In this document: positions 18,156 through 38,488 of the stretch, one piece after another
How positions within the stretch are numbered: position 1 is the stretch's first letter
Layout: every line of letters begins with the position of its first letter
NCBI GenBank assembly: GCA_016190375.1
Contig: JACPQR010000020.1
Coordinates: 3,665-67,664 of the forward strand
Reading direction: 5' to 3'
Source of the DNA: Deltaproteobacteria bacterium
GTDB lineage: Bacteria > Myxococcota_A > Polyangia > JACPQR01
Length of the DNA stretch: 64,000 bases
Position numbers and translations under genes: made by a program
The notes under the pieces: model-generated
Databases searched by the model: none
Told to the model about the DNA's origin: nothing
What the model saw: the letters and a program-made list of their open reading frames with translations, nothing else

Positions 18156-18584
18156 TCAGAACTGGACCTTCATCGATTCGGCAGGTGTGCGGGTCTCTTC
18201 GCGCCTGTGCCAGAAGCTCGGCGCGCCCGGCCGCCGTCGAAGCCCGAGCGGGTCTCGCCCGAACAGGCGGGAGGCCACGGCCACCGGAGTCAAGACGACG
18301 AAGAATGCGATCGCGAGGACCACGACGCCGACGATTCGCTCGACGACGCCCGTGACCCGCGACCATGCGGCGGCGGCGGGCCCGAACAGCCGCGGCAGCA
18401 CCACCGCCGTGGCGGCGACGGCCGAGCCCACCGCGAGCAGCACCCATCTCGGTGATCCACCGCGAACGATCGGCCACGTCGCGAAGAACGCGCAAGCGAC
18501 GCCGATGGCGACTCCGAAGGCCCGGTTCGAGACAGGCCTGCGCGGCGGCCGCCGGTAGTCCTCGTGCAGGCCGCCACCGTTCAC
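18156..18584 (-). CDS. SxtJ family membrane protein
   Basis: SNRAFG, two TM segments, FFVVLTPVA...GRDPLGLR...SFW...MKVQF. Confidence 0.85.
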   Translation of the reverse strand: MNGGGLHEDYRRPPRRPVSNRAFGVAIGVACAFFATWPIVRGGSPRWVLLAVGSAVAATAVVLPRLFGPAAAAWSRVTGVVERIVGVVVLAIAFFVVLTPVAVASRLFGRDPLGLRRRPGAPSFWHRREETRTPAESMKVQF

Positions 18585-18624: not shown

Positions 18625-18678
18625 AGCCGACCGCCAGGGTGACACGCACCCAGCCGACCGCCAGGGGGACACGCACCC
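18625..18678. repeat. Tandem 27-bp duplication (AGCCGACCGCCAGGG[T/G]GACACGCACCC x2)
   Basis: Two adjacent copies differ at one position; second copy overlaps the left end of the palindromic element. Confidence 0.9.
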
Positions 18679-18848
18679 GGTTGGCAACCCATCGATTACA
18701 AAGACCTTTCGGGGACAACCGCGCGTTTTGCACCGCGTGCCCGTGGTCAGCCGCAGGATGCTTGACCCTGCGGCGATGGGGATAGATCGCGCGGTTGTGC
18801 CTACGACCGCAATGATTCTACGGTGTTGCGGACCGGGTGCGTGTCCCC
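18665..18848. repeat. 184-bp palindromic intergenic element (REP/MITE-like): two inverted GGGGACACGCACCCG-N38-ACCGCGCG units
   Basis: Perfect 15-bp terminal IR (18665-18679/18834-18848), inner 11-bp IR (18715-18725/18788-18798), central 8-bp hairpin (18750-18757/18767-18774). Confidence 0.85.
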
Positions 18849-18917
18849 GATCCGGTGCCGTCGTTTCTCGACCGTTCTCTCACGGCGGGGTATCTTGCCC
18901 GTGTTGGTGCCGACGAG

Positions 18918-19427
18918 ATGATCCTGAACGATCTGACCCCGTTGCACTGGGCCGTGGCCGGGCTCGGCATCGGCCTCGTCACGCTCGCTCTCCTTTTCCT
19001 CGCCGGCCAGCGATTGGGCGTGTCGACTGGCTTCGAGAGCATCTGCGGGCTCCTCCTGCGCGTTCCCTACCTGCAGCGCCCCGAGATCCGCTCGTCGCGG
19101 GGCTACCGTCTGCCGTTCACGGCCGGCCTCGTGCTCGGTGGTCTCCTCTCCGCGGTCCTCGGCGGAGGGTGGGCGCCGACCTGGGAGCTAGGGATGCTCG
19201 ATGACGCGATCCACGCGAGCCCCGCGGCGAAGCTCGCGTGGATGTTCGCGGGCGGCCTCCTCATCGGGTTCGGGACTCGGCTCGCCGGCGGCTGCACGAG
19301 CGGCCACGGCATCTTCGGGATCTCGAGCGGCGACCGGTCAAGCATCGTGTCGACGCTGGCCTTCATGGCCGCCGGCGCATTCGTCACGAACATCGTCTAT
19401 CGCCTGCTCGTCGGAGCAGCGCCCTGA
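18918..19427 (+). CDS. YeeE/YedE family sulfur-compound transporter subunit
   Basis: RLGVSTG, GFGTRLAGGCTSGHG motif. Confidence 0.9.
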   Translation: MILNDLTPLHWAVAGLGIGLVTLALLFLAGQRLGVSTGFESICGLLLRVPYLQRPEIRSSRGYRLPFTAGLVLGGLLSAVLGGGWAPTWELGMLDDAIHASPAAKLAWMFAGGLLIGFGTRLAGGCTSGHGIFGISSGDRSSIVSTLAFMAAGAFVTNIVYRLLVGAAP

Positions 19428-24826: not shown

Positions 24827-25318
24827 TCAGTCGATCGAGGGGAAGCAGCGGCGCTCGCCCTCGTCGAAGCTCAGGCACGTCGAGGGCACCGGGCAGGAGC
24901 CGCAGTCGCCGTCCGAGGCGCACTGACCGAGGCAGGCCGGCGTCTCGTCGTCACCATCGACCACGTCGACGGTGAAGGCAACCTCGTCGAGGACCACGTC
25001 GCCATCGCCGTCCGGCGTCAACGCGACCGCGAGCAAGTGCCCGCCCGTGGGAAGGCCCTCACGCCGCACCGAGATCGAGCCCAAGGACCCGGCCCTGTAC
25101 TCGACGGGCTCGGTCAGCGCACCCATCGAGTCCGGGTCGCCCAGGGCCGCCGCGACCGTCCCGTCCCGCGTCCCGACGAACAGAAGCCCGATCTCGGTCG
25201 TCGCGGCATCGACGATTCGATCCTCGGGCTCCGTCGCGAGGACGCGCACCGAAGGTGCGACCGGGCTGGCCTCGCAGCCCCAGATGAGCAACGCCCCGAA
25301 CATCGCGACCCGACACAT
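24827..25318 (-). CDS. Hypothetical lipoprotein with C-terminal Cys cluster
   Basis: LLIWGC lipobox; [20 protein letters not shown]...C. Confidence 0.6.
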
Positions 25319-35289: not shown

Positions 35290-36324
35290 ATGAGCGCGAT
35301 CGGCGCGTGGCTGAAGACGAGGTTCCCGATCGACGTCGATCGGCTTCGCGCCGTCACCGACGAGCCCATCCCCGGCCACCTGAAGAGATGGTGGTTCGCG
35401 CTGGGCGGAACGCCGGCCTATCTGTTCGCCGTCCAGATCGTGACGGGGATCCTCCTTCTCTTCTACTACGTCCCCGAGCCCGGTCGCGCCTACGACTCCG
35501 TCGCCGAGATCACGTCGGGCGTCCGCTTCGGCTGGTGGCTGCGCAGCATCCACAAGTGGGCCGCCACGGGGATGATCGTAGCGGTCTGTCTGCACACGAT
35601 CCGCGTCTTCTTCACGGGCGCGTACCGAAAGCCACGGGAGCTCACGTGGGTGGTCGGGTGCATGCTCCTGTTCGCGACGCTCACGGCGGGACTGACGGGC
35701 TATTCGCTCGTCTACGAGCAGCTCTCGTACTGGGGGACGACCGTGACGTCGAACCTCGTGGCGGCAGTGCCGGTCCTGGGCGGGACGCTCGCTCGGTTCC
35801 TGCGTGGCGGCGCCGAGGTCGGGCCCGCGACGCTCACTCGCTTCTTCGTCCTGCACGTCGCCATCGTGCCCGGCGCGATCGCCACCCTGGCCATGCTCCA
35901 CCTCGCGCTCGTCCGCGCGCACGGCGTCACGGAGCTCGAGCCACGGCGTGGCGAGCCTCGCACGTTCCCGCTCATCCCCGACCACGTCCTCACCGAGCTG
36001 TCGATCGCGCTCGTCCTGATGATCGCGCTCAACGTCCTGGCGATCCTTCTGCCGGCGGAGCTCGGGGAACGCGCCAGCCCCACCGCGACGCCGGAGCACA
36101 TCCGGCCGGAGTGGTACTTCTACTTCGCGTTCCGCTGGCTGAAGCTGACGTCGCTCCGCATGGGCGTCCTGGGTGTCGGGGTCGCGGCCGCGATCATGGT
36201 CGTCTGGCCCGCGATCGACGTAGTGCTGCGCCGCCTGTCGCCGCGGCGTGAGCTGTCCGTCCTCTTCGGAGCCGCCGCGGTCCTGGCCGTGGTGGCCCTG
36301 ACCCTGTGGGAGGCGCTCGCATGA
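35290..36324 (+). CDS. Cytochrome b (b6 and subunit-IV parts fused)
   Basis: RSIHKW, LHTIRVF, SYWG, RFFVLHV, PEHIRPEWYF. Confidence 0.95.
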   Translation: MSAIGAWLKTRFPIDVDRLRAVTDEPIPGHLKRWWFALGGTPAYLFAVQIVTGILLLFYYVPEPGRAYDSVAEITSGVRFGWWLRSIHKWAATGMIVAVCLHTIRVFFTGAYRKPRELTWVVGCMLLFATLTAGLTGYSLVYEQLSYWGTTVTSNLVAAVPVLGGTLARFLRGGAEVGPATLTRFFVLHVAIVPGAIATLAMLHLALVRAHGVTELEPRRGEPRTFPLIPDHVLTELSIALVLMIALNVLAILLPAELGERASPTATPEHIRPEWYFYFAFRWLKLTSLRMGVLGVGVAAAIMVVWPAIDVVLRRLSPRRELSVLFGAAAVLAVVALTLWEALA

Positions 36325-37640
36325 TGACCGTCGGCCCGAAGCGCTGGATCGTGGCGAGCCTCGGCTTGCTCTTCCTCCTGTCGCTCATCGTCGTCTCTTA
36401 CCGGGAGATCGCGACCGAGCGCCGGCCGACCGAGAGGCCCCGCCCCGTGGTCGCCGCCGCCGACAGGGTCTGCGTCGACTGCCATGGGCGAGTGACGCCA
36501 TCGATCGTCCACCAGTGGGAGGACTCGCGGCACGCGACCCGCGGCATCGGCTGCGCCGCATGCCACGGCGCGAAGCAGAGGGACCCCGACGCGTTCGTGC
36601 ACTACGGCGTGCGCATCGCGGCGATCGTCAGTCCACTGGACTGCTCCCGATGCCATCAGCGCGAGTTCCGCGAGCAGACCGGCAGCCGCCACGCCGACGC
36701 TCTGGCGTTGATGCGCGAGAACGACGGCGACGTCGCGCGGTTCGTGGGCGCCGAGCCGCTCGGCTGCCAGGGATGTCACGGCGCCAGGGTCATCGCAACC
36801 GGTGCCGGCCAGCTCGACCCGACCACCTGGCCGAACGGAGGCATCGGCCGCATCAACCCGGATGGCTCGAAGGGCTCGTGCTCCGCCTGCCATACGCGGC
36901 ACGACTTCTCGCTCGCGCTGGCGCGGGCGCCGGAAGCCTGCGCGAAGTGCCACCAGGGAGACGACCACGCCCCGGCGATGGACGTGTACCAGGAGTCCAA
37001 GCACGGGGCCCGCTTCCGCGAGATGCATGACGAGATGAACCTCGGAAGCTCGACGTGGATCGTGGGCCGGGACTACTACGCGGCCCCGACCTGCGCGACC
37101 TGCCACATGTCGGCGACGCCCTCTCAGCCAGTCACCCACGACGTGGGCACGCGCCTGGGCTGGACCCTTCGGCCTGTCGTCTCGGTCCGGCAGGCCGGCT
37201 GGGAGGACAAGCGGGACGCGATGGTCGACGTGTGCTTGCAGTGCCACGCAGACCAGTGGGTGCAGAACTACTTCACTCAGTTCGACGCGTTCGTCGAGGA
37301 CTACAACGGCCGGTTCGCGATGCCGGCGCGCCAGATCATGGAGGCGCTCCGGCGCAAGGGCGCGCTCACCCCCGCCCCGTTCGACGAGCCGATCGAGTAC
37401 ACGTACTTCGCGCTGTGGAGCCAGGCAGGCCGGCGGGGGCGCATGGGCGCCGCGATGATGGGGCCGTACTTCGTCCAGTGGCGAGGCGCGTACGAGGTGG
37501 CCAGGGTCTTCTACTCGGAGCTTCTCCCGGAGGCGGAGAGGCTGCGCCCCGGCATCACGGCGCCGTTCGTCACCACCGGAGCGCGCGTGACTCGCGCAAG
37601 GCGACCGGCGCCAGCCGCCACGCTCGGAGAGCGCCGGTAG
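36321..37640 (+). CDS. Octaheme cytochrome c, hydroxylamine-oxidoreductase-like family, N-terminally anchored
   Basis: Eight CxxCH motifs (CVDCH, CAACH, CSRCH, CQGCH, CSACH, CAKCH, CATCH, CLQCH); helical C-terminus GRRGRMGAAMMGP..QWRG. Confidence 0.88.
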   Translation: MMTVGPKRWIVASLGLLFLLSLIVVSYREIATERRPTERPRPVVAAADRVCVDCHGRVTPSIVHQWEDSRHATRGIGCAACHGAKQRDPDAFVHYGVRIAAIVSPLDCSRCHQREFREQTGSRHADALALMRENDGDVARFVGAEPLGCQGCHGARVIATGAGQLDPTTWPNGGIGRINPDGSKGSCSACHTRHDFSLALARAPEACAKCHQGDDHAPAMDVYQESKHGARFREMHDEMNLGSSTWIVGRDYYAAPTCATCHMSATPSQPVTHDVGTRLGWTLRPVVSVRQAGWEDKRDAMVDVCLQCHADQWVQNYFTQFDAFVEDYNGRFAMPARQIMEALRRKGALTPAPFDEPIEYTYFALWSQAGRRGRMGAAMMGPYFVQWRGAYEVARVFYSELLPEAERLRPGITAPFVTTGARVTRARRPAPAATLGERR

Positions 37641-37704
37641 GGGACACGCACCCGCTCTCCAAACAAGCGATGTCGCTGGCTTTTCAGACCATACCGCGCG
37701 ATCT
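37640..37704. repeat. Solo copy of GGGGACACGCACCCG-N38-ACCGCGCG(ATCT) motif between convergent stop codons
   Basis: Same two blocks and same 38-nt spacing as both units at 18665-18848. Confidence 0.85.
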
Positions 37705-37705
37705 G

Positions 37706-38254
37706 TCAAGGCAGCACGTACATCGGCGCGGTCTGCGCGGGCCGGCCCAGGATCTCGTCCTCGAAGTAGCCGCGTACGACTCTGCGCACGAAGTCGAGGT
37801 GCTCCTCCTCTTCGTGGAGGAACTTCCGGAAGGCCCTCTCGGCCTTGTGATCGGCCGCATCCTCCGCGAGGTGGACGAGCAGGTCCCAGCCCGCGTTGTC
37901 CTGCAGCTCCGCCGCGAGGAGCGCGTGGAACAGATCGGGGATCCTGTTGGACCCGTTCAGGACGACCTTCTCGATTCCCTCGGTCTCGGTCTCGATCAAC
38001 CGGGTCCTCTCGGTCGAGACATGCGGATCCCCGCCCAGGGCGCGGATCTGTTCCTCGAGCCATTCCTCGTGGTCCTTCTCCTGGTCGCGGTACTCGCGGA
38101 CGGTGTCGAGCATCGCCGTCACCTCCGGGTCGCCCGACCTCTTCATCTTCTGGAGGATGGCATCGTACAGTTTCACGCCCTCGTGCTCGAACGCGCATCG
38201 CTCGGTGAGGGCGTCGATCACCTTCGCTGGATTGCTGCGCGAGAGCTCATGCAT
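37706..38254 (-). CDS. Ferritin-like domain protein
   Basis: FEHEGVKLY, QEKDHEEWL, AELQDNAGW, HEEEEH carboxylate/His pattern; start at MHELS..., longer ORF to 38305. Confidence 0.85.
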   Translation of the reverse strand: MHELSRSNPAKVIDALTERCAFEHEGVKLYDAILQKMKRSGDPEVTAMLDTVREYRDQEKDHEEWLEEQIRALGGDPHVSTERTRLIETETEGIEKVVLNGSNRIPDLFHALLAAELQDNAGWDLLVHLAEDAADHKAERAFRKFLHEEEEHLDFVRRVVRGYFEDEILGRPAQTAPMYVLP

Positions 38255-38488
38255 GGCGACTGCCTCCGCACCCTCGAAAGCTGCAACCGGCGCCACGCAA
38301 GTCAACGGGTACCTTGGGAAAGCGAGAGCCGCGAGGTCTCGAGACCCCGGCTCCAGGTAGGGCCGCCGTTTTGTCGAGGACGGACAGGGAAGGCACCAGA
38401 CTAGAAGCTACGACTGACTGTTCATCGCCGGACACCGCTCGGGGGTCGGCCGATCCCGCGGCCTCTAGGCGAGGTACGCTGGCGGCCG

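Follow-up and report, generated by a model that had tools for sequence, protein, structure and literature searches.

REP/REPIN-RAYT systems, or REPtrons, were reportedly described by Nunvar in 2010 and by Bertels and Rainey in 2011. TIRtrons form the largest RAYT group and have already been catalogued, and we found no report of characterised substrates, a mechanism or a role for them. In the sections available of the catalogue of Di Nocera, De Gregorio and Rocco (2013, PMC3733652), RAYT-like genes flanked by long TIRs instead of REPs are called 'TIRtrons' or 'TIRYT'; GGGGWSAS is common to many of these TIRs, which are found at similar distances from the gene and make up families of moderate abundance, with members that are single, dimeric or grouped (PMC3733652). 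The available text of Quentin et al. (2018, PMC6006769) places most TIRYTs in TnpA_REP subclass 2.1, which is RAYT group 1 of Bertels, and reports no REP-like secondary structures near subclass 2.1 genes, together with the consensus GGGG[AT][CG]A[CG]. The same text describes the action of IS608 and ISDra2 as replication-coupled and confined to one strand (PMC6006769). For RAYT group 1, the portion available of Bertels et al. (2017, PMC5581495) gives about 12 occurrences of the flanking 16-mers.

The window analysed here is a 64-kb stretch (positions 3665-67664 of contig C162) of the metagenome-assembled genome G000 (7.8 Mb, 70% G+C, 247 contigs, 88% complete), in which genes were called as crude GC3-based ORFs. 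It contains three exact copies of the 15-mer GGGGACACGCACCCG, at 18665(+), 18848(-) and 37640(+), and in all three ACCGCGCG follows after exactly 38 nt, as the earlier note had described. The sequence ACCGCGCGATCT is common to copies 2 and 3, and copy 1 carries ACCGCGCGTTTT. With the 15-mer as the head and the second block as the tail of a unit, the features in the window are the following.

18156-18584 (-): ORF with its 5' end toward the doublet, putatively 'sxtJ-like' as named in the earlier note
18625-18664 (+): 5' 'stutter', a 27-nt tandem duplication of flank and head
18665-18731 (+): unit 1, with its head at 18665-18679, a 38-nt interior, the tail AACCGCGCG at 18717-18725 and then TTTTGC
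18732-18781 (no strand): locus-specific 50-nt spacer between the two tails, holding an 8-bp hairpin
18782-18848 (-): unit 2, tail to tail with unit 1 (184-bp doublet), with its head at 18848-18834 and a tail of class ACCGCGCGATCT
18837-19427 (+): ORF with its 5' end toward the doublet and a probable ATG near 18918, presumably 'yeeE' as it had been named before
36306-37640 (+): multihaem ORF; its TAG stop and the head of unit 3 overlap
37640-37706 (+): unit 3, a singleton whose G1 is the G of the upstream TAG stop
37706-38305 (-): convergent ORF; its stop and the end of unit 3 overlap

Units 1 and 2 lie in a divergent gap, between the oppositely oriented ORFs at 18156-18584(-) and 18837-19427(+), and as facing copies they form the 184-bp palindrome that had been noticed there, with nested inverted arms and a central 8-bp hairpin (18750-18757 / 18767-18774). 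The outer arms (18665-18688 / 18825-18848, 24 nt) are 92% complementary and the inner arms (18712-18725 / 18788-18801, 14 nt) 93%; folded as ssDNA, the 184 nt reach -60.1 kcal/mol versus -36.0 for shuffles (z = -7.3). No promoter-like or terminator-like sites were found in this pair. The two halves of the stutter (18625-18651 / 18652-18678) are 96% identical, and a fourth, partial head, GGTGACACGCACCCA at 18638-18652, which had previously been missed, lies within this 27-nt tandem duplication. Unit 3 exactly fills a 65-nt gap between convergent stops and overlaps both of them (TAG at 37638-37640 and TCA at 37706-37708); its positions 67-69 are the TCA, the reverse of TGA, of the convergent ORF.

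By the 3-mismatch statistic of the window, three exact 15-mers per 64 kb are not significant. The motif is placed beyond chance by the whole genome, in which we found 138 exact heads and a spacing of exactly 38 nt in 164 of 165 head-tail pairs; a reversed-pattern control for the bipartite motif gave 0 matches. Full units number at least 163; they align without gaps and occupy 124 loci. From position 1 to about 67, the unit reads GGGGACACGCACCCG, 38 nt, then ACCGCGCG[A/T]T[C/T][C/T]GT. Head positions 1-8 are GGGGACAC in 152-163 of the 163 units, and the same eight positions recur in cross-species flanks.

The interior of the unit had been regarded as fixed in length and free in sequence, and the second half of this claim did not hold. 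Fixed anchors (CAA, CG, ATC, TT and G) were found among the conserved positions C21-A22-A23-C24, C29-G30, A33-T34-C35, T43-T44, G48 and A/T53, and phased A/T-rich patches occur at about -1, 11, 22-23, 31-34, 43-44, 53-54 and 62-63, giving a periodogram peak at 10-10.5 bp in the G000 units. Seventy units from other genomes, taken as an independent set, showed the phasing again (peak at 10.5-11). When only the interior was used to build a weight matrix, about 170 sites were recovered, about 160 of them with head and tail intact, so the conservation of the ends is real and not a selection artefact. The mean pairwise identity of the interiors is 19.5/38, compared to a column expectation of 19.6, which is near saturation, and the nearest non-local neighbours share 25-31 of the 38 positions. 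Apparently 'headless' copies proved to be a subfamily of seven units whose head is interrupted after position 12 by a 13-nt insertion, GAACCGCGGCGCG.

C42:13225-13325, and sites on C18, C120, C77, C221, C230 and C1: units with the 13-nt insertion

The units occur in three arrangements. Tail-to-tail doublets of 155-196 bp (19 of them) take up 38 of the 163 units and 20 pairs are tandem neighbours, while head-to-head pairs are not found among the 163 units; singletons outnumber doublets in G000, whereas doublets dominate elsewhere. The tandem neighbours are local duplicates, with an interior identity of 35/38. In the doublets, the arm-to-arm interior identity is 17.5/38 versus 19.5 for random pairs, the pairing is confined to the conserved head, tail and anchors, and the tail-to-tail spacers vary among the 19. 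The 184-bp palindrome consists of two independent units that face each other, with interiors no more similar than those of random units. A group of seven doublets, each exactly 155 bp long, shares a 33-nt central palindrome, AACAC-N4-CGTGCCANTGGCACG-N4-GTGTT, which is absent from the rest of the genome. Their left and right arms are distinct, and this subfamily resembles a composite that was mobilised in one piece.

C162:96666-96820 (on the contig of the window, outside the window), C35:8969-9123 and C51:36341-36495: 155-bp doublets
C104:6112-6266, C175:149469-149623 and C197:18564-18718: further 155-bp doublets

Most units lie downstream of genes, at their 3' ends. Stop-like triplets favour two starting positions, -4 (TGA-NN-head; 29 units) and -1 (TA followed by the first G of the head; 18 units), compared to 1-8 units for other nearby positions, and in about 33 units a co-directional coding-like ORF ends within 7 nt of the head. 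On the tail side, convergent stops are frequent, with a looser fit than at heads. Where a gene end was called on one side only, it is faced by the head in 32 cases and by the tail in 27. In addition, a 5' stutter precedes 45 of the 163 units, which have between one and five partial heads in the 200 nt upstream. The stutters are mostly tandem duplications of 6-20 nt of unique 5' flank plus head; they sometimes include up to about 35 nt of interior, and their periods are 18-63 nt. No tail-side stutter was seen.

C231:24094-24150, C127:20-120, C170:9672-9779 and C77:56348-56490: examples of stutters

Contigs of 30 kb or longer carry 78 independent single-orientation loci, and at these we compared orientation with GC skew. 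The GGGG-strand coincides with the locally C-rich strand in 55 cases and with the G-rich one in 22 (p = 1.5e-4), and the split is 33:9 for |skew| > 0.01 and 13:3 for |GC skew| > 0.02. No bias relative to the local gene strand was found (59:63).

A Pfam Y1_Tnp search of G000 returned six genes, of which only one is of RAYT-like type. It lies on another contig, and the earlier observation that the window holds no transposase stands for this Y1/HUH type.

C145:25244-25893: RAYT-like Y1/HUH gene, 216 aa, outside the window
C85:605-889, C207:2791-3033, C91:25957-26238, C96:23758-24015 and C108:5632-5892: the other Y1_Tnp genes

Units at 25121(+), 25965(-) and 26058(-) surround the C145 gene, with their heads outward and their tails toward the gene. 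The suggestion of an HUH-nuclease as a partner is thereby borne out by a RAYT-like Y1 gene that is bracketed by inverted units, and homologues in Polyangia are bracketed alike. The protein scores 50.7 bits to Pfam Y1_Tnp; among NCBIfam models it scores 74.2 bits to REP_Tyr_transpos (cut-off 80) versus 17 bits to IS200. Both H60-A-H62 (HUH) and Y120 in AYVELNP are invariant in 29 homologues. Among PDB entries, 4ER8 (E. coli TnpA_REP) ranks first both in sequence (E = 9e-10) and in fold (predicted model with pLDDT 89.8, TM-score 0.76 on the target). The C-terminal third (residues 129-216) gave no Pfam match even at E = 10, and no HTH or other DNA-binding domain was detected in it; here the predicted model has a disordered tail in addition to a few helices.

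The other five Y1_Tnp genes were ruled out as the partner, being of a different family (HVHL... RYHAR motifs) and having no units nearby. Three of them are closely related to one another, and the five may represent a separate multi-copy element. When we looked for an autonomous element in the form of two outward-facing units at most 6 kb apart, there were three candidates; two of these hold ordinary genes, and the third encloses the C145 Y1 gene.

Homologues of the C145 protein are numerous (981 at E <= 1e-10). At seven loci from metagenomes and MAGs, with 51-69% identity, the gene is bracketed by inverted units in 7/7 cases, and these units have the length and the anchors of those in G000. 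We then considered 80 homologue loci from other species, nearly all of them Polyangia MAGs, in which the bracketed homologues have 40-69% identity. A correctly oriented head is present upstream at 50/80 loci, downstream at 43/80 and on both sides at 40/80, compared to only 12 and 5 wrongly oriented heads, and the distances between head and gene are conserved (about -97 to -113 and +57 to +76). Head identity is 0.80 between loci and 0.90 within a locus; for tails the corresponding values are 0.46 and 0.81. The more alike two RAYTs are, the more alike are their tails (Spearman 0.54, Mantel p = 0.001); some correlation of this kind would be expected from shared descent alone. Examples of lineage-specific tails are CAAAGATCGCAGCG, CACACCGCGAAAAC, CAAACGTCCAATC and ACTCGTAGA, the last of which, from one related lineage, contains GTAG; another lineage has CAAAGATCGCA, compared to ACCGCGCG in G000. 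The 746-kb contig L034 (uncultured delta proteobacterium MAG) has its RAYT module immediately downstream of smpB, between two tandem arrays of four units each with periods of 104-128 nt. A stutter also occurs beside the RAYT homologue there.

Six other genomes with head-flanked homologues contain 25-119 copies of head-N8-YAA, mostly as doublets, versus 0-1 in reversed controls. The gene is present in 12 of 120 sampled genomes of the class, usually as a single copy. Among these 12, two have 25-43 matches and ten have none by the strict pattern; in 19 genomes of the class without the gene, there are 0-2 matches. The bipartite pattern specific to G000 gave nothing in 40 genomes of the same class, and no close relative of G000 was found in the genome collections. 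Among 185,579 species genomes, this pattern had two matches, a true copy in a Polyangiales MAG and another due to chance; in metagenomes, four to five true contigs were obtained. At four loci with matching flanks, the presence or absence of a unit differs between related genomes and G000, and related metagenome contigs carry units beside genes whose G000 orthologues have none. One orthologous gene ends in ...GCGAAGTGA in G000, with no unit, and in ...GCGAAGTAG directly followed by GGACACG in the relative; this hints at insertion at the stop codon, or at rebuilding of the stop codon.

L031:430-640 compared with G000 C84:880-1090: orthologous gene ends; in L031 the stop overlaps the head of a unit of the RAYT module

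The system shares with TIRtrons a RAYT-like Y1/HUH gene with a catalytic Tyr (Y---NP) flanked by long inverted repeats, a head, GGGGACAC, that fits the outer motif GGGGWSAS exactly, TIRs at a roughly constant distance from a single or low-copy gene, and dispersed repeats, here 163 units at 124 loci with 19 doublets and 20 tandem pairs. All of the defining features of a TIRtron that were tested are present. The system differs in copy number, with at least 163 units (138 exact 15-mers) in G000 versus about 12 occurrences in the available part of the report on RAYT group 1 (PMC5581495). By analogy with the classification seen in the available parts of two studies, the C145 system probably belongs to TnpA_REP subclass 2.1, that is, RAYT group 1 (PMC6006769, PMC5581495), although a C-terminal HTH-like extension is expected in subclass 2.1 and the G000 protein has no Pfam-detectable HTH. 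The available portions of three papers do not mention the rigid 67-bp geometry, the anchors or the 10.5-bp phasing (PMC3733652, PMC6006769, PMC5581495). Likewise, in the accessible parts of the TIRtron/RAYT literature we did not find the universal head with a co-diverging tail, the abutment on stop codons, the stutters or the GC-skew bias, and no link between RAYTs or TIRYTs and Myxococcota was found in the literature searched. The earlier note had stated that a match to an already described REP or MITE family would tell against its reading, and this is partly the case: as a class, the units match the TIRYT TIRs with GGGGWSAS known from the portions available of two papers (PMC3733652, PMC6006769), and the family is an unusually abundant case of a known but little-studied kind of system, the TIRtron, whose anatomy is newly detailed here.

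The resemblance to REPtrons includes a single-copy gene of RAYT fold bracketed by inverted copies of an abundant extragenic repeat, a concentration of the repeats downstream of genes and the occurrence of doublets. However, the REPtron repeat is an imperfect palindrome of 20-40 nt with a GTAG/CGTC tag, whereas the G000 units are not palindromic and lack this tag in both the head GGGGACAC and the tail ACCGCGCG. The arms of a REPIN are complementary, unlike the interiors of the doublet arms in G000, and the G000 units have no master sequence and are highly diverged except for the ends and anchors. With IS200/IS605 elements (IS608, ISDra2) and the gene-less PATEs, the system has in common the Y1/HUH fold, the absence of a target duplication, an orientation bias relative to replication and one end that abuts a short preferred flank. 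In contrast, IS200/IS605 elements have two different ends with subterminal hairpins and move as whole multi-copy elements, whereas in G000 inverted copies of one hairpin-less unit surround a gene that is present in a single copy. The two boxes are likely the head and tail of a unit of about 67 bp that serves as the cognate terminal repeat of a single-copy RAYT-like Y1/HUH transposase of the TIRYT/TIRtron type.

Two other readings treat the units as classical mobile elements or as RNA. If they were MITEs of a DDE transposon (IS630/Tc1-like, with TA as the target), a complete element would correspond to the doublet, and singletons would be relics of which half has been deleted. TA does precede the head in 17/163 units, and one doublet has TA on both sides, but most flanks are other than TA, the interiors of the doublet arms are unrelated and singletons are more numerous than doublets. 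Furthermore, with six candidate 5' and 27 candidate 3' boundaries, no target-site duplication of 2-5 nt exceeded shuffled controls at any tested boundary, and none was visible at the 19 doublets. Units bracket only one gene, of Y1/HUH type, in G000 as well as at 40 other loci, and we consider the MITE reading extremely improbable. We also found no link between the 5' flank tetramer and the tail class, as a 'guide' idea would have it. A structured RNA, a 3'-UTR element or terminator transcribed with the upstream gene, would agree with heads that lie 0-5 nt after co-directional stops in about 33 units and with the position of most units downstream of genes. It would not agree with the facing of one-sided gene ends by heads and tails (32 vs 27), with an orientation that follows GC skew and not the gene strand, with the absence of terminator-like sites in the window pair, or with a 10.5-nt periodicity, which is a property of duplex DNA. 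Covariation analysis of the units gave no covarying column pairs (maximum mutual information 0.2 bit), and single units in G000 fold no better than shuffles (-17.2 vs -17.9 kcal/mol). In the cross-species set, the MFE is only 1.7 kcal/mol better than that of shuffles, the head forms at best a 3-5-bp G/C mini-stem, and Rfam covariance models gave chance-level matches only (E >= 1.4); an RNA element is accordingly a scarcely credible explanation. With neither hairpin nor covariation, Rfam match or duplication, the single unit is not a REP-type palindrome, a structured RNA or a classical MITE, which agrees with the previous judgement that this is not an ordinary REP.

A further explanation overlaps the one that we prefer and does not exclude it. 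The units could be protein-binding or wrapping sites that are maintained by the host and punctuate gene ends, with transposition now rare or extinct; we regard this as somewhat unlikely, and with the same reserve a nucleoid protein, gyrase or the domesticated RAYT itself might be named as the binding partner. About 160 copies have an almost unchanged head and tail, whereas free positions of the interior are near saturation, and the A/T phasing of about 10.5 bp is found both in G000 and in the independent cross-species set. In the 20 tandem duplicates, anchors changed at 10/280 positions versus 50/640 for free positions (p = 0.019), a weak test that is partly shaped by the selection of units. 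The RAYT-like gene is single copy, as are domesticated RAYTs in the part available of one study (PMC5581495). On the other hand, presence and absence of units differ between related lineages at flank-matched loci, the copy number ranges from 0 to more than 160 among genomes that carry the gene, and no host factor was identified.

Taking the units as the cognate terminal repeats of the RAYT-like transposase, we propose that they were dispersed across the genome, whether singly, as tail-to-tail doublets or in local tandem copies. The conserved HUH core would act at the junction of head and flank, where it is placed because the GGGGWSAS motif, the abutment on stop codons and the stutters coincide there, and a more variable surface of the protein may read the lineage-specific tail. 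The phased 38-nt interior would present head and tail on one face of the helix, or bend the DNA, for joint binding. The GC-skew bias suggests that mobilisation may be coupled to replication and act on one strand, as for IS608 and ISDra2. The G-rich strand is usually the lagging-strand template, and with this assignment the processed strand would end in ...GGGTGCGTGTCCCC-3'. Stutters might be by-products of nicking or of fork stalling at a tightly bound head. Cleavage, excision and insertion by the predicted enzyme are part of this proposal.

Two observations sit uneasily with a standard Y1 mechanism. To our knowledge, characterised Y1 transposases recognise single-stranded hairpins, and the single units, having no hairpin, are unlike such substrates, which speaks against the transposase reading. 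In addition, phasing at 10.5 bp suggests that duplex DNA is recognised, for which this enzyme class offers no explanation. Heads that are near-invariant beside saturated interiors fit selection on resident copies better than recent transposition. Likewise, some genomes with a homologue have no units by the pattern applied, and the C-terminal third of the protein shows no DNA-binding domain; both count against the transposase reading. A bolder version, speculative and in our judgement unlikely, is that TIRYT enzymes recognise about 67 bp of duplex on one face, with the core on the GGGGACAC head and a variable surface on the tail 38 bp away, that nicking during replication gives rise to the stutters, and that the host has kept the units as punctuation at stop codons.

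G000 and the approximately 40 related loci make up an unusually large and clean TIRtron data set. Testable predictions follow on which strand is cut and at which junction, which part of the protein reads the tail, and whether duplex DNA is what is recognised. In genome annotation, many of the exact-fit intergenic fillers and "palindromes" of Polyangia are accounted for by this family. If the bolder version of the transposase reading were true, both the mode of substrate recognition and the domesticated role would be new for HUH transposases.
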